Source: a plasmid. Taken from it: a stretch of 64,000 nt of DNA. A program made the position numbers and the translations under genes. Position 1 is the first letter of the stretch; each line of letters begins with the position of its first letter. The notes beneath the pieces are model-generated. The model was not told the origin of the DNA. It saw only the letters and a program-made list of their open reading frames with translations, and did no database searches. Where the stretch lies: the sequence record AP029161.1; one strand, given 5' to 3'. Shown piece by piece: positions 486 through 61,215 of the stretch.

Positions 486-512
486 AACCCCTCCGTCCAA
501 GAGGGGTTTTTC
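486..512. terminator. hairpin cccctc-N7-gagggg flanked by T/A runs; probable bidirectional terminator downstream of fic
   Basis: GC-rich hairpin in an AT-rich context at the 3' end of the minus-strand ORF 511-1329. Confidence 0.45.
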
Positions 513-1329
513 ATTCTTCATCAGTTAATAATTCATCACTAGGTTTTTTAATTGAAATAATTTTTGCCATTAAATTAATTAAAATGTAGCAAGAATCAAA
601 GTCGATTTTACCATTGTCTTCTTTTCGGATTCTATGGGCAGTTCTGAGACCTTTAATGTATTGCCTTCTTCTTTTCCCTGTGGACGGGAATTCGATTTGA
701 TATTTTCCATTAGAAAATAAAATATCTAGAAAATACCTTGCCGTTCTTCCATTGCCATCATGAAAAGGATGGATGGCAAAAAAATGAACTAAAAATTTAG
801 AGCAAACTATTTCTAAATGCTTTTTATTATTAAAATCAAGATTTGCAAACAGCTTATCCCAGACACTTTTTAAATTTGGTGCAATTTCTTCTGATTTAAC
901 GCCAAGAAAGGCATGTTTGTCTGCAATGCCATCTCCATCCACCTTTACATCTTCATTAAGGATTCTAAAGCGTCCAAGTTTTTTCACTTTAACGTTTTTA
1001 AAAATTTCTTGATTGATATTCAAAATCAAATTCACAAACTCAACACTATTTGTTGGGAATGGAAAGTAACCTTCTTCAATTTTCAATTTAATTTTGGAAC
1101 AATTGGCAGCGATTGTTTTTTGATTATTTATTAGAATTTCATAGTCAATGACATTTTTAAAATCATCAGTTTCTAATTGTAGTAGGCGTTCATCAATGAG
1201 CTGACATAATTTTTTATCTTGATTGCATGAAAAATGATTGACTAATATACTCAATGAATTGCATTTTTTACACAGTTTTTTCTTGTTCAAGATAACGAGC
1301 AACCTCAAAAATATCTTCAAAAGCAACAA
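511..1329 (-). CDS. Fic/Doc family protein (AMPylation-type toxin)
   Basis: Canonical Fic motif HPFHDGNGRTARYF (HxFx[DE]GNGRxxR). The start overlaps the end of the upstream ORF. Confidence 0.85.
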   Translation of the reverse strand: MLLLKIFLRLLVILNKKKLCKKCNSLSILVNHFSCNQDKKLCQLIDERLLQLETDDFKNVIDYEILINNQKTIAANCSKIKLKIEEGYFPFPTNSVEFVNLILNINQEIFKNVKVKKLGRFRILNEDVKVDGDGIADKHAFLGVKSEEIAPNLKSVWDKLFANLDFNNKKHLEIVCSKFLVHFFAIHPFHDGNGRTARYFLDILFSNGKYQIEFPSTGKRRRQYIKGLRTAHRIRKEDNGKIDFDSCYILINLMAKIISIKKPSDELLTDEE

Positions 1330-1894
1330 TCGGTATATTATCTAATAAAAAGCTATTATAATCAAATAATCCCAAGGGTAAATAAGTTCTTTTTTCTTCA
1401 TTATTAAATTTTTGTTTAAAAAAGTTTTTTATCAAGTTTTTATCAATTAACTTATTATTAGTTTCTTCATGATAAGTTAATTTCCATGGGTTATCGAGTC
1501 CATTGGCTTTTTCTTCGTGTGTTTCTTCGACAAGACTTCTTGGTGAGAGTCTTCCATAAACACTGAGGACGACAGAAATCAGATCTAATAATTTTGGAGA
1601 AAAGGAATTCTCTTTATTCTGAATTTCCTGAAAAGCCTCGTGTGAAGCTTCTACTTTATAATAGGGGTCAGTCGGGTTTTTTAGAGCGTTATAAACTTTT
1701 CTATTTACAGGACCATATTTCCACGCTTCAAATTCAATTCCTTCCACTTCACTATCTAAATCATAGGCTAAAGCCGCACCGTAGCAATAATAGGCAAGTT
1801 TCTGAAGTTTCAGCGTGGTAAGATCATTTTTAGGATCGCTACTGTACTTTTTAGTAATTTCATAAACAAAACTAATATCTTTCATGGGTATCAC
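1268..1894 (-). CDS. Panacea-domain (DUF4065, SocA/GepA-like) putative antitoxin
   Basis: N-terminal region …LTTLKLQKLAYYCYGAALAY… resembles the DUF4065/SocA family. It lies directly upstream of, and overlapping, the Fic gene (toxin-antitoxin-like arrangement). Confidence 0.5.
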   Translation of the reverse strand: MIPMKDISFVYEITKKYSSDPKNDLTTLKLQKLAYYCYGAALAYDLDSEVEGIEFEAWKYGPVNRKVYNALKNPTDPYYKVEASHEAFQEIQNKENSFSPKLLDLISVVLSVYGRLSPRSLVEETHEEKANGLDNPWKLTYHEETNNKLIDKNLIKNFFKQKFNNEEKRTYLPLGLFDYNSFLLDNIPIVAFEDIFEVARYLEQEKTV

Positions 1895-6457: not shown

Positions 6458-6671
6458 TTCAGTTCTCCCTTTGGGATTTGTGTTGATGTGAAACTTTTTG
6501 TCTCACATATAATTGTTTACATCCGTTTAAACATTTTGTCAAACATTTTAGTTGATTAATTTAAAATATTTTTTTTATTTTTGTTTGACAAAAATTTATT
6601 TACATGTAAATATTTATTTGTGGAACGATAGTCGACCACACTAAACAAATCCCTTAGGGAGAACTGAAATG
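6458..6671. promoter_or_regulatory. divergent early control region 1: mirrored conserved leaders (6458-6475 minus orientation; 6651-6671 plus orientation) flanking an AT-rich core with several TTGACA-like boxes
   Basis: Leader motif CCCwwwGGGAGAACTGAA-ATG on both sides. Homologous architecture is seen at 52529-52724. Confidence 0.55.
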
Positions 6672-12912: not shown

Positions 12913-14013
12913 TCATTTTATAAACCGACTATACAGCTCTGATATTTTTCCACCGCTTTGAAGAAAAAATGAATTTTTTTCGTTGCTATTTTCATGAATA
13001 AAATATTTGTATTTGTTTGTCTTATTTTTAAAATCATTTTTTAACTCATACTCAGCATCTTCTCTTGAATCAAAGTACTCAATAAATTCTGAAATATTTT
13101 CTACTCCGTGCTGAGGATAGGTTGAGTTAATCATTTCCAAAAAAAGATGTTTTAAAGAATTATTAATATAAAAATAAGAAGATACATATTCTCTTCTATA
13201 ATATTTACTTTCATCTTTTTTAACCTGCAAAATAGAAGGAAGAGGAATGCCAAACCTACCACCATCACACCATACCAAAATCAATTCACCAATTTTGGTT
13301 TCTTTGTATTTAATTGTTAAAATGTCGGTGTAAGATTTCTGATCGTTAAAAACTAAAACCCAATTTTCAAAATATTCTCTATTAAATTTACTTTTCTCAG
13401 AAATTATTGAAAAATTAGGATCTGGTTCATAATAAAAATGCAGTTTAGTATCATTTACATAATTGTATTTCCAATTATTTTTATCTTTAAGATAAGTCAT
13501 TATTTTTTCATTTGGAGTTTTGTCGATATTAAATCTTTCACGGTACATGTCTTCTATTTGTTTAGGAGTTGCGCTTCCATTCTTTGGTGTATTGCTGCTG
13601 CCAAGTCTCGTGTAAACTACACCTGCTCTAATTGTATCTTTTCCTTGACCATAGTCTTGCGTTAGAAAATAAGGTTTATGATTTATGTTTTGAATTTGAA
13701 TAATATCTATAGGATTATCTCTGTAATTTAAAGCAAATAACTTTATATTAGGAAGATTATTTAATCTTGCATTTTTTACTAAGTCCATTAAGTCATTTTC
13801 TTTTTTTCTCTTAATATCATTTTTAATATCAAAGAAATTTTTATCGTCATCAACGCCAAAAATAAGATATTTATACTTGCTATCAGTTTTTGAATTTGCA
13901 AGACATAATATGTCATGAATTAAATCTGAATTATTTTTATGATATTCTCTTTTAAAATCTATAAATTCACATTCTTGATTATTAATCAATTGCTTAATTT
14001 CTTCGTGATTCAT
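12913..14013 (-). CDS. AlbA_2 (Schlafen-like, divergent-AAA N-terminal domain) protein; candidate defence / abortive-infection factor
   Basis: N-terminal ECEFIDFKREY…DILCLANSKTDSKYKYLIFGVDDD matches the AlbA_2 signature (E.EfK…AfANt.GG.liiGV.D). Antisense to the flanking phage genes. Confidence 0.5.
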   Translation of the reverse strand: MNHEEIKQLINNQECEFIDFKREYHKNNSDLIHDILCLANSKTDSKYKYLIFGVDDDKNFFDIKNDIKRKKENDLMDLVKNARLNNLPNIKLFALNYRDNPIDIIQIQNINHKPYFLTQDYGQGKDTIRAGVVYTRLGSSNTPKNGSATPKQIEDMYRERFNIDKTPNEKIMTYLKDKNNWKYNYVNDTKLHFYYEPDPNFSIISEKSKFNREYFENWVLVFNDQKSYTDILTIKYKETKIGELILVWCDGGRFGIPLPSILQVKKDESKYYRREYVSSYFYINNSLKHLFLEMINSTYPQHGVENISEFIEYFDSREDAEYELKNDFKNKTNKYKYFIHENSNEKNSFFLQSGGKISELYSRFIK

Positions 14014-14112: not shown

Positions 14113-14577
14113 ATGAAAAAGCAAACTAAAAAAATAAAAAACCCAAAAGGATCTGGTCGAAAAAAACTATTTCAAGAAAAGTATCACGAAGAAATTATTC
14201 AGACCATGAAAAAAGGCCAAGGAGTTTCATTTTTTGCAGCTAAGATAGGAGTTTCAAAACAAACCATCTACAACTGGATTAACGAAAATGTAGAATTTAA
14301 GGAATCATTTGAAATTGCTCAGACAGCATGCCAAGCATTTTGGGAGAATTTGGCTTTAAATAATGCAGTAACAGCAAAAGGAAATGGGAATCAAATACAA
14401 TACCAAATGAGTAAAAGATTTAGAGATGACTATGCTGATTCTTCTCAAATAAATATTTTTAACTCTAATAATCAAAATGTAAATAGATCTATAAAAGATA
14501 TGACAAGAGAAGAACTAGAAGCATATGAAAAAGATTTACTTCAAAAGTTGAATTTAGAAAGCAATAATGAGCATTGA
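14113..14577 (+). CDS. terminase small subunit (HTH-containing)
   Basis: HTH segment GVSKQTIYNWI. Overlaps the terminase large subunit start by 11 nt. Confidence 0.6.
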   Translation: MKKQTKKIKNPKGSGRKKLFQEKYHEEIIQTMKKGQGVSFFAAKIGVSKQTIYNWINENVEFKESFEIAQTACQAFWENLALNNAVTAKGNGNQIQYQMSKRFRDDYADSSQINIFNSNNQNVNRSIKDMTREELEAYEKDLLQKLNLESNNEH

Positions 14578-15982
14578 TATTCAAGAAAGAATTGCAATTC
14601 TTGAAAAGCTAAAAAAGATAAAAGAAAGAAAAAAAGAGCAAGATGATTTTCTATCCTTCTGTATAAAAAGTTTTCCCAGATATAAAGCTGGTTGGGTCCA
14701 TGAAGAAATTTGTAAAAAGTTAGAAAAATTTGCTCATGATGTTTATCTTGAAAAATCTCCTAGACTGATGATCTTTATGCCACCAAGACATGGAAAATCT
14801 TTTTTAGTTAGCGAAAGATTTCCTGCTTGGGTTTTAGGTAAATACCCTTATTTTGAATTTATTTCTGCAACATATGGAAAATCTTTAACACAAGGCTTTT
14901 CAAGAAAGTGCAGAAATTTAATTCACTCAAAATGGATAAAAGAAATATTCCCTAACTTTGACTTAAAGAAAGATAGTAAATCAGTTGATTTTTGGGAAAC
15001 AACTTATGGTGGAGCTTTCATCGCAACTAGTATTGGTGGATCAGTAACTGGTAAAGGCGCACACATTTTATCAATTGATGATCCTCATAAAGGTATAGAA
15101 GAAGTTTTATCAGAAGTGATGAGAAACAAAACTCATGATTGGTATAAAACAGATGCTTTTACACGTCTTTTACCTGGCGGTGGAGTAATTTTAACTCTTA
15201 CGAGATGGCACGATGATGATTTAGCAGCAAGAATATTAGCAGAAGATACGGATAATGAATGGGAAGTAATTTGTTACCCAGCGATAGCTACTGAAGATGA
15301 AGCGCATAGGAAAAAAGGAGAAGCATTACATCCAGAACGTTATCCTTTAAAAATGCTTCAAAAGCTTTTAAAAACCCTTGGTTCGTTTTTCTTTAATGCT
15401 CTCTATCAACAGGACCCAGTGCCTGCTTCTGGAACAGTATTTAAAAAAGAATTTTGGAGATTCTATAATGAGCGATTTACTTTTTACGACAAAATTATTC
15501 AGGTTTGGGATTTAAGTTTTAAGGGTGACGAGAAAAGCGACTATACTGTGGGGCAAGTTTGGGGCAAAAAAGGAGCAAACTTTTATTTACTCGATCAAGT
15601 ACGAGGTCAATGGGAATTTACTCAGCAAATTGAACAAATAAAAATGTTATCAAAAAAATATCCACTTGCATATTCAAAATACATAGAAGAAAAAGCTACG
15701 GCGACAGCGGTTATTTCTACACTCAAAAAAGAAATTACAGGTTTAATTCCATTCAATCCAAAATCTGATAAATACTCACGAGCTTTAGTTGCACAGCCTC
15801 CACAACAAGCAGGAAATATTCATCTACCTAACCCTCAACTAAATCCTTGGGTAAACGATTATATTGATGAACATTCTCGTTTTCCAAAAGGCAAAAATGA
15901 TGATCAAGTCGATTGTACAAGTTTGGCGATGATTCAATTAAATAATAATGGGCTGGAGCATTTAAAAGCTTTGGTTTCTTAA
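14567..15982 (+). CDS. terminase large subunit
   Basis: Walker A FMPPRHGKS, Walker B ILSIDDPH, conserved YQQDP. Nuclease-like C-terminal region with acidic residues. Confidence 0.85.
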   Translation: MSIDIQERIAILEKLKKIKERKKEQDDFLSFCIKSFPRYKAGWVHEEICKKLEKFAHDVYLEKSPRLMIFMPPRHGKSFLVSERFPAWVLGKYPYFEFISATYGKSLTQGFSRKCRNLIHSKWIKEIFPNFDLKKDSKSVDFWETTYGGAFIATSIGGSVTGKGAHILSIDDPHKGIEEVLSEVMRNKTHDWYKTDAFTRLLPGGGVILTLTRWHDDDLAARILAEDTDNEWEVICYPAIATEDEAHRKKGEALHPERYPLKMLQKLLKTLGSFFFNALYQQDPVPASGTVFKKEFWRFYNERFTFYDKIIQVWDLSFKGDEKSDYTVGQVWGKKGANFYLLDQVRGQWEFTQQIEQIKMLSKKYPLAYSKYIEEKATATAVISTLKKEITGLIPFNPKSDKYSRALVAQPPQQAGNIHLPNPQLNPWVNDYIDEHSRFPKGKNDDQVDCTSLAMIQLNNNGLEHLKALVS

Positions 15983-16812
15983 ATTTTAAATCCGAAATGC
16001 TTAAATGCTTTTTCTAGTAAATTCTTTTCATCTTCGGTTAGATTATTTTCTAAAATGTAGTTGCTAAATTTTTCGCTAGTAAATTTTTTACTTTCTTTTT
16101 GGGGAACGCGTTCCCCAGTCAGCCCACAAATTAAATTAAGCTCATCGATTAGTTTATCATCGCTTTCCCATTTTTTCTTGGAAATATTACAAAGAGAACG
16201 AAGGCTGAATTTTTCAGGGAACTCTTTGATTAACTCTCTTGCTTTTATTGGCCACTGACCAACTTTTATTATATTTTTAATATATTTTTTATCTCGACTA
16301 AATTTTTTCGCTATGTCGTCAGCATCCCATCCTTGCGCAACTAGATCAGCGTAGCCCTCAGCTACATCAATTGGATGCAAGTCTTCACGTAGTAAATTTT
16401 CAATTAAAGCATGTTCAGTTCGTTTTGAAGAATTAGATGAGTAAACTTTAAGATTAGCTTTAATTTTTTCAATACCAAGTTCTTTGCATGCTAAGATTCT
16501 TCTATGACCAGCGACAGCAATTAGTTCAAAATCATCACCATCAATGTTTCTCCTAACCTCAACTAGAACTGGCTGGATCACTCCCTCACTTGCAATACTA
16601 TTCTTTAAATCCAAAAATTCAGGTTTACTAATATCAATTCTGTTTCTAATATTTTCATTTAATTTTATCTGATTTACGTTTAATGCCACTGTTTTATTTT
16701 CTTCAGCAGCTTTTTCATAAAGTAAAACAGTATTTAGTCTATCAGAATTAGAAACAACGCTAGCAAATCTACTTAATTTTTCAGCTTCAATCGCTTGACT
16801 AATAGTACTCAT
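15979..16812 (-). CDS. parB: ParB-like partition protein
   Basis: ParB box GHRRILACKELG. Located downstream of parA. Confidence 0.8.
   Translation of the reverse strand: MSTISQAIEAEKLSRFASVVSNSDRLNTVLLYEKAAEENKTVALNVNQIKLNENIRNRIDISKPEFLDLKNSIASEGVIQPVLVEVRRNIDGDDFELIAVAGHRRILACKELGIEKIKANLKVYSSNSSKRTEHALIENLLREDLHPIDVAEGYADLVAQGWDADDIAKKFSRDKKYIKNIIKVGQWPIKARELIKEFPEKFSLRSLCNISKKKWESDDKLIDELNLICGLTGERVPQKESKKFTSEKFSNYILENNLTEDEKNLLEKAFKHFGFKI
16101..16116. promoter_or_regulatory. GGGGAACGCGTTCCCC 16-bp perfect palindrome (candidate parS), copy inside the 3' part of parB
   Basis: Exact palindrome, GC-rich in an AT-rich context. A second copy lies upstream of parA. Confidence 0.5.
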
Positions 16813-17690
16813 ATTTCAAGATCCTCTATTTCGATAGAATTTAAACTGTAATTTTCTTTCTTAATTTCTAATTTAGAAGTTGCTCCTGTAATTTCTTTCT
16901 GTGCTAAATCAATCTGTTTTTGAACTTCTTCAGCTAGGCTCAAATATGCTTTTGAAATTGGGCTTTTTTCTTTATAAATAATTAGTGCTTGATGTTTCAT
17001 CGATGCACCATAAATCATTTGCGAAAATGGAATAATAGTTTCAAAAATGTGGATATCATTTTCATTACCTATTTTTCTTAGAAGCTTTTCACCTGCTAAT
17101 TGGAATGCGCTTTTTTTATCGAATTTCTGAATTACACATCCAAGCATTTTTAGATTTGAATTGTAGTATTGTTTTATTTTTTCGGCATTGCCAACAACCA
17201 TTGCTAGCCCGTCAATCACGTCGTTTTCAGCAAACATTGGGACCAAGTAAAAATCACTCTCGCGAAGTGCTGACTGAAAAAGGCAATCAGGATTCGGATT
17301 TGTATCAATGATGACAAAATCATAACTATTGCGAACATCACTTAAAACATCTGCTAGCAAAAAAAGTTGTTCGGGCTTTCCTGTATGACGTAAAACTATT
17401 TCCTCTAAAGCTGTCGAACTTGGCAGTAAATCTAAATTCTCTACATTTGTTTTCACTGCAAACTTTTTAAAATTAACTTTTTTTAAAATTGCATTAGCTA
17501 CAGATTGTTCTGATTTTAATTCACGACTACGAACATTCAACAATTCAGTAGCATTAGCTTGATAATCGAGGTCCACCAAAAGAACTTTTTTTCCTGAATA
17601 AGCAAGGCATGAAGCTAAATTAACAGCACATGTTGTTTTTCCAGAACCTCCCTTCTGAATTGTGACCGTTATAATTTTTCCCATTCTCAT
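16809..17690 (-). CDS. parA: ParA/Soj-family partition ATPase
   Basis: Deviant Walker A QKGGSGKTT. Confidence 0.85.
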   Translation of the reverse strand: MRMGKIITVTIQKGGSGKTTCAVNLASCLAYSGKKVLLVDLDYQANATELLNVRSRELKSEQSVANAILKKVNFKKFAVKTNVENLDLLPSSTALEEIVLRHTGKPEQLFLLADVLSDVRNSYDFVIIDTNPNPDCLFQSALRESDFYLVPMFAENDVIDGLAMVVGNAEKIKQYYNSNLKMLGCVIQKFDKKSAFQLAGEKLLRKIGNENDIHIFETIIPFSQMIYGASMKHQALIIYKEKSPISKAYLSLAEEVQKQIDLAQKEITGATSKLEIKKENYSLNSIEIEDLEI

Positions 17691-27493: not shown

Positions 27494-27566
27494 TTCAGTT
27501 CTCCCTATGGGATTGGTTTTACATTGACGGACTGTCTAAATTGTTTAGTTAAAGAGACTGTCCGTC
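27494..27566. promoter_or_regulatory. divergent regulatory region: early-type leader (27494-27511, minus orientation), late motif copy c in minus orientation (27527-27542), variant GACTGTCCGT in plus orientation (27556-27565)
   Basis: Head-to-head arrangement between the divergent operons 27493← and 27601→. Confidence 0.5.
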
Positions 27567-47962: not shown

Positions 47963-49567
47963 TTATTCATATATTTCTTTAATAAAATCTTTAAATGCTT
48001 CAGCTATTTCATATAGAGTAATACTACTATTTAATTCACTTTTTTGATGAAGAATTTCTTGATTTAAATTTAAAATTTTATTTGATTGTTCAATAATTTT
48101 TTCTACACCAAAATTTTTTAAATTATCTTTATTTATAAATAAAATCATCATCCAATTATATATATTTACATACTCAATTTTACTAAATATTGATTCAATT
48201 TTATACTCCCTGTAAAATTCATTTAAAACAAACTCTCTAAATAGATAATATTCTACAGGAAAACCAAAGAAATTACATTTTTTATGATATACAATAGTGA
48301 TAAAGTAGAGTTCTTTAAATTTTAAATAGTGATCGAAATTTTCTTTTACTATGTTATTAATTAAAGAATTCCAAAAATTATGAATTATACTTTGATTATT
48401 AAAATCTTTAAGATTTGTATCTCCTAATCTTAGATGGTTACATAAAACCTTTAAATTTTCTTCTAGTTCAAATTCATTTAAATGTATTTTTTTGGAAATT
48501 CTCCTTATTAAATCATTTAAAGTATTAAATTTTACTAGCATACTATAGCTATGGTAATCAGAATTGCTATTATTTAAATTAAAATATAGCATAAATTCAA
48601 AGTAATCAATTATTTCTATAATCTCTCTTGTGCTAAATATTTTTAAAAACTTAAGCTCATCAGGAAGAGATTTTGTTTCATTTAAAATAAATGGAAACAT
48701 GTTGTTATTAATTTTTTTATGCAAAATATTATTTAATATCTCAGGAATTATATCTAATTGAAAATATTTCGCATTTAATTTTTCGATCATTTCAATAGCA
48801 TTGTTTTTATTGTCATTTTTCGAGTATCCAAAGGGGACTATGTATTTTCTCCTGTATCTGAGTAAATTTGATAATAAGGCCCAACGGTCTTCTTCTTTTA
48901 ATGAACTTCGATCAAGATCATCTAAAATTATTACTTTAATTTTGTTATCGTACCATAATTCAATAGATTCAAAAAAACAATTATAAATGTATGATATTTT
49001 TAATTTATTTGTTGCAAAAATAAAAGGAATAATTAAAAAAATGAAATAAATAATTGTACTGTATGATGAATAATCAAAACCGACAATTTTTTTAAAATAT
49101 AATTCATTATAAAATATAATCAAAATTGATAATATAAAATAATAAATGGAAAAAAATATTTTCCAGTGTTTTGGTGCTATATGTGAATACGCTTCATCTA
49201 AAGTAGAAATTCCAAAAAAAGAAATTTTCTTTTTATAATATCTACTATTCAAGCATAATTCATGAACTACTCTATCTGAAAGAGCGGATTTACCCGCACC
49301 CCATTCACCAATTATAAACACTGTTTTATTATTTCTATCTAAAAAAGCTTTAATTTCACTAATTTTATTAGTATGATATTTGAATTCTATAAAATCCGAA
49401 GGAGTATTATTTTTATCTATTTCATTCCAAAATAGATAAAAAGATTCTTTCAATATTTCATAGTATGTATATATGTTAAAAATTCTTTTGATTTTATTAG
49501 TACAATTATCTTTTAATTTAATATATTTTTCAGATTTTATCATACAAATTATTTCACCAGTGTACAC
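47963..49567 (-). CDS. KAP-family P-loop NTPase
   Basis: Walker A GEWGAGKS. Hydrophobic TM insert between Walker A and B (…FFSIYYFILSILIIF… / …IIYFIFLIIPFIF…). Walker B VIILDDLDR. Confidence 0.7.
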   Translation of the reverse strand: MYTGEIICMIKSEKYIKLKDNCTNKIKRIFNIYTYYEILKESFYLFWNEIDKNNTPSDFIEFKYHTNKISEIKAFLDRNNKTVFIIGEWGAGKSALSDRVVHELCLNSRYYKKKISFFGISTLDEAYSHIAPKHWKIFFSIYYFILSILIIFYNELYFKKIVGFDYSSYSTIIYFIFLIIPFIFATNKLKISYIYNCFFESIELWYDNKIKVIILDDLDRSSLKEEDRWALLSNLLRYRRKYIVPFGYSKNDNKNNAIEMIEKLNAKYFQLDIIPEILNNILHKKINNNMFPFILNETKSLPDELKFLKIFSTREIIEIIDYFEFMLYFNLNNSNSDYHSYSMLVKFNTLNDLIRRISKKIHLNEFELEENLKVLCNHLRLGDTNLKDFNNQSIIHNFWNSLINNIVKENFDHYLKFKELYFITIVYHKKCNFFGFPVEYYLFREFVLNEFYREYKIESIFSKIEYVNIYNWMMILFINKDNLKNFGVEKIIEQSNKILNLNQEILHQKSELNSSITLYEIAEAFKDFIKEIYE

Positions 49568-52528: not shown

Positions 52529-52724
52529 TTCAGTTCTCCCTTTGGGATAGGTTTTAAAATCGTCACAACGACGACAATGTTATTTTTACCACGTTGTAAA
52601 TATTTGTCAACGGGTCGATATTAAAAAAATATTTACAATTATCAATTGACAAATATAAAAATTAATTTTATTTTATATTTGTTACTTTTTAATCAACTCA
52701 AATCCCAAAGGGAGAACTGAAATG
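52529..52724. promoter_or_regulatory. divergent early control region 2 (mirrored conserved leaders at 52529-52546 and 52704-52724; AT-rich core with TTGACA boxes)
   Basis: Same architecture and leader as region 6458-6671. Confidence 0.55.
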
Positions 52725-56232: not shown

Positions 56233-57537
56233 ATGCACACCACTACCGCAAATAGAATGTATCTCAAATGTGCACAAAAATCAAATATTTCGCACAGGGA
56301 GAGCTACGTGTCTGATTTTATTATGTCAAATGCTTACCAAAAATCCTCCAAAACCAGAAAAACATACAAAAATAAATTAATTTTAAGACCGATGAAAGAG
56401 GGTTATACGCTTGGGCATGCTCAAAAAGAAGCTTATAATGGTGGACGCTCATTAAGAGCGATTTGGTCAAATTCGAGTTTAAAGCCAAATCAAAAATTAG
56501 TGTTGTTGTGTCTTGCGTCCCACTTAAATTTCAAAAATACTTTTAAAGCTTGGCAGAAAATTTCTGCAAAACAAATTGCAAGTGAAACGCAATTTGGAAT
56601 TCGTACTATCCATTCTATTTTAGCTGATTTAGTAAAAAATGGTTATTTGTTAAAAAAACAAAATTTTTCAAGCAAAACTTTTTTACAAGAAGAAAATAGT
56701 TATTGTTTATCAGATAAGCTTTTTGATGAGCATGTTATTTATTTGCAAAAAAGTTTTATCCCCAAGCACGATGAGCACGTTAAAGAATTTAAGCAACAAA
56801 AATTTGCAAAAAAGAGTTATATACCTTCTGCAAAACCTGCAGAGGCGGTAAGCAAAGCCTGCAACCCTGCCTTGCAAGATTCGCAAGCCGCCATTGCAAA
56901 ACCTGCAGACGTTTTTCCTCTTGTATTTTCCCCTAATTTTCTCCCTTTAAATAATTCCATGTGTGGTGAAAATAAATCACACACAAAAAATGAACATAAA
57001 AATAGCAAAAATTTAAAACAGGCAAGTATTATTGTTTGCGAGTTGCTTAAGCATAAATTAAATAAACGCTTTATCCCAAATTTTGAATGTGAGGGCATTA
57101 TAGAAAGGTCAATAAGCAAGCTTAATATTATTGATATTAAGATAATCTTAGACTTTTGTAAGGAAGCAATCTCTAATCCCAATTACAAGAAGATTAACAG
57201 TTATGAAAATATTGAAGTTATTTTCATTCAAGAGCTTGAAAGTTTCATTAATGATAAAAATTATATTTCAAATTTCAGAATTTCAGATCATAAAGAAATA
57301 AAAACGGAGATAATTAAAGCTGAACCTCTTGCAGAAAACAAAACTCAAACTGTAATAGAAGAATATCCTGAACCATTCAAATCATGGTTCAAGACGCTCA
57401 ACGAAACAACAAAAAATACTATTCGAAAAGAAATAAAAATTCATGGCAGAGTTAAATTTTTTAACTTAATCCTTCCATCCGTAAGAGCTTATAAATCCTT
57501 TATAGAGCAATTAGACTCAGAAAGAAGGGCTGCATGA
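56233..57537 (+). CDS. replication initiation / replisome-organiser-like protein (winged-helix N-terminus)
   Basis: N-terminal …NQKLVLLCLASHLNFKN…ISAKQIASETQFGIRTIHSILADLVKNGYL… typical of phage Rep/DnaD-like wHTH domains. Confidence 0.5.
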   Translation: MHTTTANRMYLKCAQKSNISHRESYVSDFIMSNAYQKSSKTRKTYKNKLILRPMKEGYTLGHAQKEAYNGGRSLRAIWSNSSLKPNQKLVLLCLASHLNFKNTFKAWQKISAKQIASETQFGIRTIHSILADLVKNGYLLKKQNFSSKTFLQEENSYCLSDKLFDEHVIYLQKSFIPKHDEHVKEFKQQKFAKKSYIPSAKPAEAVSKACNPALQDSQAAIAKPADVFPLVFSPNFLPLNNSMCGENKSHTKNEHKNSKNLKQASIIVCELLKHKLNKRFIPNFECEGIIERSISKLNIIDIKIILDFCKEAISNPNYKKINSYENIEVIFIQELESFINDKNYISNFRISDHKEIKTEIIKAEPLAENKTQTVIEEYPEPFKSWFKTLNETTKNTIRKEIKIHGRVKFFNLILPSVRAYKSFIEQLDSERRAA

Positions 57538-57794: not shown

Positions 57795-57983
57795 TTTTTT
57801 TCGTATTTTACCACTACCTGATGGTAAAATACCCTTAAAAAAAGTCAGACAAAAAAATCGACACATGAGATTTTTTAAATTACATTTTTATCAGAACCCT
57901 TTTATAAAATCGTTCCTTTAGGAATAGCCGAAGTAAAAAGTAAAAGGGTTCACAAGAAACCATTCCCTTTGGGAGTACCGAAA

Positions 57984-58574
57984 ATGCAGAGTATTAAGAT
58001 AATTAATACCTCTAATAATGAGGTATTTTATGCTACTGAAAAATCAGTAGGATTTGATATTGCAGCGGATGAAAGTGTTTTAATTTTACCGCTGCAAGTT
58101 AAAAAAATAAAAACTGGCTTAAAATGGAAAATAGAAGATAATTCTGAATTAATAAGCATAAAAGAGGCTGCTAAATTAGTTAAATGCTGCACCTCAACAA
58201 TCCATCGACAATGTAAAAAAGGTAGGCTTAATTTTGAAAAAATAGATGGAGTTTATTTTATAAATAAGGATCATCTTTTATCGTATTTTAATAATGAAGA
58301 AATAATCGATTTACCTGAAAAATATGAGCTTCAAATAAGACCTAGAAGCTCCTCACTACTAAAAGAAAAACTTCATATACAAATAGGAACAATTGACCCT
58401 GATTACACTGGTGAAATTTGTATTATCGCACAAAATATTTCTTTTAAACCAAAATTAATTTTAAAAGGGGAGCGGATTGCTCAAGGAATAATATCGAAAG
58501 TTTGTTTAGCTGAAAACGTATTTAGTAGAAATATAATTAGAAACAATAATGGTTTTGGGAGTACTGGAAAATGA
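57984..58574 (+). CDS. dut: dUTPase (trimeric type) carrying an inserted Xis/AlpA-type HTH domain
   Basis: Motifs YAT…VGFDI, RPRSS, GTIDPDYTGEI, GERIAQ, GFGSTG. A roughly 55-aa insert, ISIKEAAKLVKCCTSTIHRQCKKGRLNFEKIDGVYFINKDHLLSYF, matches the HTH_17 pattern. ATG at 57984 follows the leader variant GGGAGTACCGAAA. Confidence 0.75.
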   Translation: MQSIKIINTSNNEVFYATEKSVGFDIAADESVLILPLQVKKIKTGLKWKIEDNSELISIKEAAKLVKCCTSTIHRQCKKGRLNFEKIDGVYFINKDHLLSYFNNEEIIDLPEKYELQIRPRSSSLLKEKLHIQIGTIDPDYTGEICIIAQNISFKPKLILKGERIAQGIISKVCLAENVFSRNIIRNNNGFGSTGK

Positions 58575-60255: not shown

Positions 60256-61215
60256 ATGAATGCTTCATTTATAAAGCTATCGTTTCCATTAAGTGCAAAA
60301 TTGGGGATACCTAAAGCATTAATTTTACAACGCATTTGCGACTGGATTAGATATAATAAGACTAAAAAAAATATGAATATTAATGGAAATGTATGGGTCT
60401 ATAGATCTGCAAAAGAGCTTGCAGATGATTTAGATGGCAATTTTTCCATTAGATCTATTGAAAGACATTTAAATTCTCTTATTAAAAACGGTTGGATAAT
60501 AAAAGAAAACTTTAATAAAAATACTTTTGATAGGACCTGTTGGTATACGGTCAATGCAAAAAAAATAAAGGAAACTTTTAATAATTGGGAACTTGAAACA
60601 AACTTTAAAGATTCTGACCTAATTGATGATCTCGATCCGTCACATCTGTCGGATTCGTGTCCGACAGATGTGACGGATCGAGATCATCAAGTTGTCGGAA
60701 TGGATTCCGACAATCATGAAAATCTCCCTATATATAATAAAAGAGAAGAAATAAAAGAAGAAAAAAAGAAGAAGATTGCAAAAAAAGAAAATTCTTGCTT
60801 GAAAGAAAAAAAACTTAATGAACGAGCCTCTCAAATGCTTAAGTCAGGGATTGAGGCTTATGTCAAAGCTTATGAGTATCGTTACAAAGCAAAATTTCTT
60901 GATTTTCCCACTCTGAGTCGCTCAATTCAACAAATCATAAAAAAAATGGGCACATCATTTTCGGAACAAAATTTAATTGATTGCATCAATTGCTATATGC
61001 GCTCTCAAAATTCATGGCATGTAACTAAAGGCCATTCGCCACTTTATCTAGCATCAGATATTCAAGGAATTTTTGCAGCGACTCAGAACAAACAGCAAAT
61101 CAAGACACAAACACAGGCACGCAAGGACGACGTTTCACAGTCAATCGACACTAACATCATCAACGCTATCAACTCGCTTAAAAACGAAAAGAATAATGAA
61201 ATTTTGGAGATTTAA
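60256..61215 (+). CDS. replication-organiser-like protein (wHTH N-terminus) containing a long internal inverted repeat
   Basis: N-terminal …ALILQRICDWIRYNK…SIRSIERHLNSLIKNGWI…. Perfect 29-31-bp arm inverted repeat at 60623-60690 inside the ORF. Confidence 0.45.
   Translation: MNASFIKLSFPLSAKLGIPKALILQRICDWIRYNKTKKNMNINGNVWVYRSAKELADDLDGNFSIRSIERHLNSLIKNGWIIKENFNKNTFDRTCWYTVNAKKIKETFNNWELETNFKDSDLIDDLDPSHLSDSCPTDVTDRDHQVVGMDSDNHENLPIYNKREEIKEEKKKKIAKKENSCLKEKKLNERASQMLKSGIEAYVKAYEYRYKAKFLDFPTLSRSIQQIIKKMGTSFSEQNLIDCINCYMRSQNSWHVTKGHSPLYLASDIQGIFAATQNKQQIKTQTQARKDDVSQSIDTNIINAINSLKNEKNNEILEI

Follow-up and report, generated by a model that had tools for sequence, protein, structure and literature searches.

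A phage-plasmid dUTPase with a nested HTH_17 domain and its possible role in DNA binding

The gene and its two domains

The 64,000-nucleotide stretch of plasmid record AP029161.1 analysed here (“the window”) carries, in the early region of a phage-plasmid, a gene for a trimeric-type dUTPase into which a helix-turn-helix (HTH) domain of the Pfam family HTH_17 is nested. The gene is a single unbroken open reading frame (ORF) of 196 codons with an ATG start, placed 8 nt after a GGGAG ribosome-binding site, and its product is 100% identical to “hypothetical protein GTC16762_33120” of Pigmentibacter ruber. An in-frame TTG at 57969 was considered as the start and rejected: it overlaps the GGGAG site, and the homologues all begin with MQSIK or MLSIK. 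A fusion of two separate genes by frameshift or misassembly is excluded, and the dUTPase with its HTH insert is a real gene, as the initial annotation had read it. The insert and the dUTPase halves on either side of it share one frame, and neither half would make a viable gene by itself; the P. ruber GTC16762 genome was assembled from long and short reads (PMC11385108); the 196-codon ORF is present in four other independent assemblies; and five more protein clusters, taken from independent assemblies of isolates and metagenomes, have the identical architecture.

Both flanking parts of the protein match the Pfam dUTPase profile PF00692 (E = 1.6e-12, 47.7 bits against a cut-off of 22), in two stretches on the native protein, and removal of the insert in silico unites them into one continuous match over profile positions 8–129 with 53.2 bits, in agreement with the earlier description of a dUTPase divided by an insert. 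PHROG 135, a dUTPase family, is matched with E = 5.9e-29. The NCBIfam dUTPase equivalog models score under their cut-offs (TIGR00576, 80.2 bits against 102.55; NF001862, 77.6 against 103), as is to be expected of a match that the insert splits; this touches the automatic naming of the protein and not its fold. All five trimeric-dUTPase motifs, previously read from the sequence, hold up against an alignment of 100 sequences: SVGFDI (motif I, residues 21–26), RPRSS (II, 119–123), GTIDPDYTGE (III, 135–144), GERIAQ (IV, 162–167) and, for motif V, R186 with GFGSTG at 190–195. The conserved residue is found in 7/7 of the invariant columns of this alignment (G23, D25, S122, D138, Q167, G190 and G192), and the catalytic-motif residues D25, S122, D138, Q167, R186, F191 and GSTG 192–195 fall on invariant or near-invariant columns. 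As far as its sequence can tell, the enzyme part looks fully competent.

In the AlphaFold2 monomer model, built from the 100-sequence alignment (mean predicted local distance difference test score, pLDDT, 86.8; predicted template modelling score, pTM, 0.71), the core has the jelly-roll fold of a trimeric dUTPase. The model matches the solved trimeric dUTPases of H. pylori, R. prowazekii, E. coli and M. tuberculosis with a probability of 1.00 and target template modelling (TM) scores of 0.75–0.84, and we infer that the protein forms trimers and has dUTPase activity. The insert had been placed in the core of the enzyme; nested within the dUTPase it is, but its site is the tip of a β-hairpin and not the core of the fold. 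The long strand 39–52 runs, in the model, out of the jelly roll into the insert, and strand 112–119 ends in motif II.

The insert of about 55 residues between the TGLKWKI strand and RPRSS had been proposed to fit the HTH_17 pattern, and a hidden Markov model search bears this out: PF12728 matches residues 57–104 over profile positions 2–49 of 51, scoring 32.5 bits in the context of the whole protein and 35.6 when the insert is searched by itself (gathering cut-off 27). The narrower “Xis/AlpA” label did not survive. The excisionase model TIGR01764 gives 20.4 bits for the full protein and 23.4 for the insert, both under its cut-off of 28.8, and Phage_AlpA (PF05930) has no match at E ≤ 10 with either. 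Weak excisionase-type similarity of the insert is seen to PHROG 2907 (E = 8.6e-6), and PHROG 66 is weakly similar too. The Pfam families MerR and MerR_1 give no match, and the architecture of a MerR regulator, with its coiled-coil dimerisation helix and effector domain, is not found either: the insert domain ends at residue 103 and the dUTPase strand resumes at 112. The protein can be assigned to the dUTPase and HTH_17 families, but not demonstrably to the excisionases, the AlpA proteins or the MerR regulators.

The predicted topology of the insert comprises a strand (56–58), a helix (59–65), the predicted recognition helix (70–78), two wing strands (84–87 and 90–94) and a last helix (95–103), with pLDDT values of about 87–94 in the full-length model and 84 when the insert is modelled alone. 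Its nearest solved folds are those of BldC (target TM 0.80), mycobacteriophage Pukovnik Xis (root-mean-square deviation, rmsd, 1.1 Å over 47 columns) and TraN, with the DNA-binding domain of pSK1 Par, the N-domains of TniQ and of MerR-family proteins and P2 Cox as further neighbours. These neighbours, together with the predicted topology, place the insert in the MerR/Xis-type winged-helix class, and its close structural neighbours are all DNA binders. The linker that returns to the enzyme has a pLDDT below 50 at residues 106–110 and is therefore probably flexible.

The recognition helix and wing region is strongly basic. Across the six members of the family described below, T72, R75, C77, K79 and G80, which lie on or just after this helix, are invariant, and positions 74, 76 and 78 vary by lineage. 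Cys68 (58185–58187), in the turn before the recognition helix, and Cys77 (58212–58214), within it, are both invariant in all six members, including the most divergent insert (P0006); they may simply belong to the domain core, or form a pair sensitive to redox state or metals.

Relatives and evolution of the insert

The five further protein clusters (P0002–P0006, 51–77% identical) have the same two Pfam domains, and all six members, P0001–P0006, carry a precomputed HTH_17 match. P0002–P0005 are exactly 196 codons long and lie on independent isolate or metagenome contigs. P0006 (L015, 965–1567) is a protein of 200 residues in the database, with a TGA read through as Trp; under the standard bacterial code it ends at the canonical GSTGK, and its extra WLIIIK tail results from the gene caller's choice of genetic code.

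The architecture had been called unusual, and so it is. An exhaustive HMMER search with the family profile covered 1.84 billion cluster representatives, and the best 150 of its 13,002 dUTPase matches were inspected; within this scope the HTH-in-dUTPase design appears to be limited to one small phage family. A single representative, P0004, matches the profile end to end, the next is the insert-free P0007, only two matches lie below 1e-30, and the best 150 include no second family with an HTH nested in a dUTPase. Candidates with at least three matched stretches or one long one (P0124, P0146, P0169, P0214, P0123, P0148, P0236 and P0230) have no HTH, and P0251 is an unrelated protein with multiple HTH_17 repeats. 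The same architecture was not found in the INPHARED phage collection, among solved structures or in the viral structures of BFVD, where the best query TM of about 0.55 covers the core only. A scan of species-representative genomes returned ordinary Gemmatimonadaceae dUTPases and nothing else, the PLSDB plasmid collection has no near match to the window from 52 to 62 kb, and a literature search found no paper combining “dUTPase” and “HTH_17”.

Insertions as such are not restricted to this family. The dUTPases of Enterococcus phage VPE25 (233 residues) and vipetofem, which align over 92% of the query, were set aside as relatives of the design, as their insert lies at another site and has no HTH; the VPE25 enzyme shares the tolerance of an insertion in a surface loop and differs in that its insert is acidic and helical, precedes the TGI strand and shows no HTH by eye. 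Closer at hand, P0121, P0129, P0158, P0189 and P0211 share the N-terminal signature of the family and have 17–34 extra residues at the same hairpin tip, which are unrelated in sequence to the insert and too short for a winged helix. The distance from the TG[L] strand to motif II is exactly 15 residues in 173 retrieved dUTPases in which both motifs could be located. The unrelated segments at one and the same tip mark it as a tolerated, hypervariable surface in this clade.

One genomic slot holds the dUTPase gene in three forms: with the insert (P0001–P0006), with an extension of only 8 residues (P0007, from Fluviispira vulneris) and with a partial insert (P0008). P0008, seen in three samples, lacks exactly 19 residues, namely the recognition helix and the first wing strand; its HTH_17 match is lost and every dUTPase motif is kept. 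In a neighbour-joining tree of the core columns the eight proteins P0001–P0008 form a clade with 100% bootstrap support, and P0007 groups with P0001–P0005 (80%); a placement of P0007 outside all insert-bearing proteins receives 5%. Most simply, the insert was gained once, then lost once as a whole and once in part. With a clean loss in one lineage and the loss of the recognition helix in another, it is an accessory, diversifying module.

As to its origin, a profile of the six inserts found no donor in a collection of 5.8 billion proteins, a search in which the query was too short for the word index, and the same profile found no paralogue when run against the ORFs of all six frames in the window and in the related loci, so that local duplication as the source is not supported. 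The GC content of the insert (26%) shows no contrast with that of the core (28–30%), hence no compositional sign of recent acquisition; reading by eye revealed no obvious direct repeat at the insert junctions and no intein-like signature within it. The F. vulneris element, whose dUTPase is insert-free, has a separate HTH_17 protein of 135 residues by RecT (L009, 5054–5461, minus strand), which has no detectable match to the insert profile.

Both insert and core are under purifying selection. The pairwise Nei–Gojobori median ratios of non-synonymous to synonymous divergence (dN/dS), which are rough values, are 0.078 for the core and 0.228 for the insert, and at non-synonymous sites the insert evolves about 2.7 times faster. 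The difference is clear within pairs: P0002 and P0003 have cores 96% and inserts 64% identical, P0004 and P0005 cores 94% and inserts 69%. The insert of P0006 is only 26–33% identical to those of P0001–P0005, and its fold-defining and helix residues are invariant all the same. Insert and core also differ in the tree that they support. Quartet-informative sites of the core group P0002 with P0003 and P0004 with P0005 (44 vs 3), whereas those of the insert favour (P0002,P0004)|(P0003,P0005) by 11 to 5 (Fisher p = 1.9e-6 vs the core). The discordant sites cluster in codons 76–91, which indicates recombination within the insert; the flanking genes follow the core tree.

Leader and genomic neighbourhood

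The dUTPase gene appears to head its own expression unit. Upstream of it lie a terminator-like hairpin behind the previous gene, a candidate promoter, a leader hairpin and a mini-hairpin at the ribosome-binding site (Table 1). The ATCGACACAT box is kept upstream of the dUTPase gene in 6/7 related loci. The leader hairpin is kept in six related phages, with 5/20 predicted pairs changed on both sides and with some G–U wobbles; the leader RNA (57795–57983) folds at −42.2 kcal/mol (z = −3.75), and Rfam has no match to it or to anything else in the window. The mini-hairpin belongs to a pattern, CCCWWWGGGAG, in which a CCC/GGG stem overlaps the GGGAG site and which has six copies in the window against zero expected. 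Each of the six precedes, by 9–10 nt, the start codon of the leading gene in a block; two divergent pairs are among them, and the pattern may be a phage-specific translation or regulatory signal.

The element itself has a myovirus-type morphogenesis block at about 20–48 kb (portal, head protease, major head protein, sheath, tape measure and baseplate), and the combination of this block with ParA and ParB identifies it as a phage-plasmid. The GC content of the window is 27.83%; the plasmid, pGTC16762-2, is circular, with 67,953 bp and 27.75% GC, and was announced only as a “plasmid” (PMC11385108). A scan of the 40 larger ORFs in the window turned up neither an integrase nor a recombinase; about 4 kb of the plasmid lies outside the window. 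The early region, from 51.5 kb, has genes for RecT, a CI-like repressor (minus strand) and an O-like replication initiator (56233–57537), an 86-residue ORF, the dUTPase and small ORFs, after which a second initiator/DnaD-like gene follows (60256–61215). The order SSB, Gp157, RecT, repressor, replication initiator, small ORF, dUTPase is kept in related contigs.

Several features of the neighbourhood are recorded here in their own right. Within the second initiator/DnaD-like gene, a perfect 31-nt inverted repeat with a 6-nt spacer (60623–60690) is a candidate for a replication origin embedded in its own initiator gene. A Fic/DOC protein (511–1329, minus strand) adjoins a SocA/Panacea antitoxin-domain protein (1268–1894, minus strand); this pair, a Schlafen AlbA_2 protein (12913–14013, minus strand) and a 534-residue protein with a weak nSTAND3 NTPase match (47963–49567, minus strand) are possible accessory or conflict genes. 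In relatives, a gene of the Acb2/Tad1-hairpin family lies a few genes 3′ of the dUTPase gene (L006, 11540–11767; L009, 11919–12260; L013, 2251–2487; L014, 5669–6016). The Acb2/Tad1-hairpin family comprises anti-defence nucleotide sponges.

Table 1. Positions in the window of the dUTPase gene, its parts, its leader and marker genes of the phage-plasmid.
Feature	Position	Strand	Basis or remark
Large terminase	14567–15982	+	
ParB	15979–16812	−	adjoins large terminase
ParA	16809–17690	−	adjoins large terminase
Terminator-like hairpin after previous gene	57804–57831		
Candidate sigma-70-type promoter (TCGACA, 17 nt, TACATT)	57858–57886	+	sequence reading
Conserved leader hairpin, about 58 nt, GAACCCTTTT...AAAAGGGTTC, inner TTCC..GGAA stem	57894–57951	+	comparison with relatives
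CCCTTTGGGAG, mini-hairpin and ribosome-binding site	57965–57975	+	one of six CCCWWWGGGAG copies
dUTPase with nested HTH_17 domain, complete coding sequence, 196 residues and stop	57984–58574	+	ORF reading, Pfam, protein match
N-terminal dUTPase segment, residues 1–52 (motif I SVGFDI, 58044–58061; long strand ending TGLKWKIE)	57984–58139	+	
Insert, residues 53–107 (Pfam HTH_17 match, residues 57–104, 58152–58295)	58140–58304	+	
Predicted recognition helix, residues 70–78, STIHRQCKK	58191–58217	+	model, family alignment
Cluster of core-contradicting quartet sites, gene nucleotides 226–271 (codons 76–91, end of recognition helix and wing)	58209–58254	+	
Acidic return linker, residues 104–111, NNEEIIDL	58293–58316	+	low-confidence prediction
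C-terminal dUTPase segment, residues 108–196 (RPRSS, 58338–58352; GTIDPDYTGE, 58386–58415; GERIAQ, 58467–58484; RNNNGFGSTG, 58539–58568)	58305–58571	+	
CCCWWWGGGAG copies	6465–6475 (−), 6651–6661 (+), 27501–27511 (−), 52536–52546 (−), 52704–52714 (+), 57965–57975 (+)		

Possible roles of the insert

We favour, with moderate confidence, a reading in which the protein is bifunctional: a trimeric dUTPase that presents three lineage-specific modules for binding DNA and, on the DNA of the phage-plasmid itself, serves as an accessory regulator, an architectural factor or a tether. The dUTPase part would be a normal, catalytically competent trimer hydrolysing dUTP for the phage-plasmid, with a 55-residue winged helix-turn-helix of the MerR/Xis class spliced into the β-hairpin tip just before motif II. 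As each subunit has such a tip, the trimer would show three modules, each held by a fairly rigid N-terminal and a flexible C-terminal joint. The modules would recognise particular DNA sites, most probably on the genome of the phage-plasmid itself, and so make the enzyme a lineage-specific regulatory or architectural DNA-binding factor, or tether it to phage DNA; their function would be accessory rather than essential and would diversify by recombination. What leads us to this reading is the combination of a competent-looking enzyme, selection on both of its parts, the winged-helix sequence, fold and helix residues of the insert, and a helix and wing that diversify and recombine. The exposed helix and wing positions seem to do so in the manner of specificity determinants. 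The conserved slot in the early/replication region, downstream of the initiator and at the head of its own leader, also counts in its favour, as does the dispensability of the module in P0007, which nests among the insert-bearing proteins, and of its recognition helix in P0008.

Several observations weigh against bifunctional DNA binding. We found no DNA target of the protein and no repeated motif tied to it, the arginine typical of HTH_17 wings is not conserved in the family, and two lineages do without the complete module. The Foldseek E-values of the 63-residue insert model are weak (0.04 and above), while its TM scores are good, and the dN/dS values are rough because synonymous divergence (dS), at about 1.1–1.3, is near saturation. 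Whether an insert is present, and of which type, does not follow the type of replication initiator, and a coupling of the insert to the replication origin, considered on its own account, is unsupported for the same reason. Geometry is a further difficulty, as a single straight DNA cannot be contacted by all three modules of a C3-symmetric trio, whereas BldC and Xis form head-to-tail arrays. BldC, Pukovnik Xis, P2 Cox and TraN of pIP501 resemble the insert in fold and size (target TM 0.75–0.85, rmsd 1.1–2.2 Å) and belong to the same HTH_17/excisionase-type sequence family. As free proteins, BldC and Xis line up head-to-tail along direct repeats in the DNA. The insert differs from this free-standing class in being nested in an enzyme, where it would sit in threefold symmetry, in scoring below the excisionase cut-off and in having no integrase partner that we could find.

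The resemblance to Xis and Cox is also what speaks for the more specific option of the initial annotation, in which the insert ties dUTP metabolism to excision, as an excisionase, a recombination directionality factor or an AlpA-type excision activator. Both proteins are among its nearest folds, P2 Cox is its sole sequence match in the PDB (E = 0.24, not significant), and there is the weak profile similarity to PHROG 2907, PHROG 66 and TIGR01764. Against this stand the sub-threshold TIGR01764 score and the lack of any Phage_AlpA match, and the position of the gene, which lies in the replication/early block and not beside an attachment site. The element has ParA and ParB, its size and GC content fit the circular plasmid, and the ORFs scanned in the window include no integrase or recombinase; a role as an excisionase is therefore unlikely, and control of excision by this protein seems to us very improbable. 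The opposite extreme, in which the protein is simply a dUTPase and the insert a decaying or neutral passenger in a tolerant loop, takes its strength from the evolutionary record: the insert is fully lost in P0007 and partly in P0008 with the dUTPase motifs kept, unrelated segments are tolerated at the same hairpin in relatives, and the insert evolves faster than the core at non-synonymous sites. Yet its dN/dS, at about 0.22 with a synonymous divergence above 1, lies far under neutrality, the frame and the 196-codon length are kept in five independent genes, not even P0006 departs from the invariant fold-defining and helix residues, and the fold is predicted with confidence, so that we regard a mere passenger as improbable.

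A reading that we take more seriously, and still think rather unlikely, is that the winged helix is a protein–protein specificity module with a satellite repressor, a host factor or a defence component as its partner. It would be the equivalent of motif VI of the Staphylococcus aureus phage 80α and φ11 dUTPases, a hypervariable segment (residues 95–127 of Dut80α) that is not needed for catalysis and confers binding to, and sets the affinity for, the pathogenicity-island (SaPI) repressor Stl (PMC4914113). These enzymes, the closest functional analogue of the present protein, are likewise of the trimeric type (here by prediction), with five catalytic motifs and one lineage-specific extra segment that is far more divergent than the core. 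The comparison, drawn already in the initial annotation, is apt as an analogy: the insert too evolves fast, recombines and can be dispensed with in an otherwise conserved enzyme, as seen here in its loss or truncation in two lineages and there in the fact that motif VI is not needed for catalysis (PMC4914113). It does not extend to the site, since motif VI lies between motifs III and IV (PMC4914113) and the insert between I and II, nor to the kind of segment, as motif VI has about 30 residues, binds the Stl protein and matches no DNA-binding family, whereas the insert has about 55 residues and is an HTH_17. Two further points can be added for a protein partner, namely that relatives carry unrelated 17–34-residue segments at the same tip, as on a general variable surface rather than a dedicated DNA-binding position, and that in related phages anti-defence-type genes, of the Acb2/Tad1 hairpin family, follow a few genes further downstream. 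The invariance of the HTH_17-typical helix residues T72, R75 and K79–G80, the strongly basic helix and wing and the DNA-binding nature of all close structural neighbours argue the other way, and no candidate partner has been identified; we know of no Stl-like partner or satellite for the P. ruber host.

The two activities might also be coupled. In a nucleotide-gated switch, occupancy of the active site would control the engagement of DNA by the three winged helices, and the dUTP level would thereby set transcription or replication of the phage-plasmid. That motif II starts eight residues after the return linker of the insert counts toward such a switch, as does the background that motif V closes over the dUTPase active site; we consider it improbable. 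If true, it would be a single-polypeptide version of the “dUTPase as signalling protein” idea that has been put forward for staphylococcal phages.

Among metabolic enzymes that have taken on regulation as a second role, phage dUTPases are the textbook case, and in the known examples this role lies with a short, structurally idiosyncratic segment that binds another protein. In the present protein the accessory segment has instead a recognisable DNA-binding fold, so that the second function can be tested directly by DNA-binding assays, with natural controls available from the same genomic slot in the insert-free orthologue P0007 and in P0008, which lacks the recognition helix. Irrespective of the function, the protein is a clean case of domain nesting at a β-hairpin tip in which the motifs of an oligomeric enzyme remain intact. 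It also brings to light a ParAB phage-plasmid family in the little-studied Silvanigrellaceae, a group that includes emerging human pathogens.

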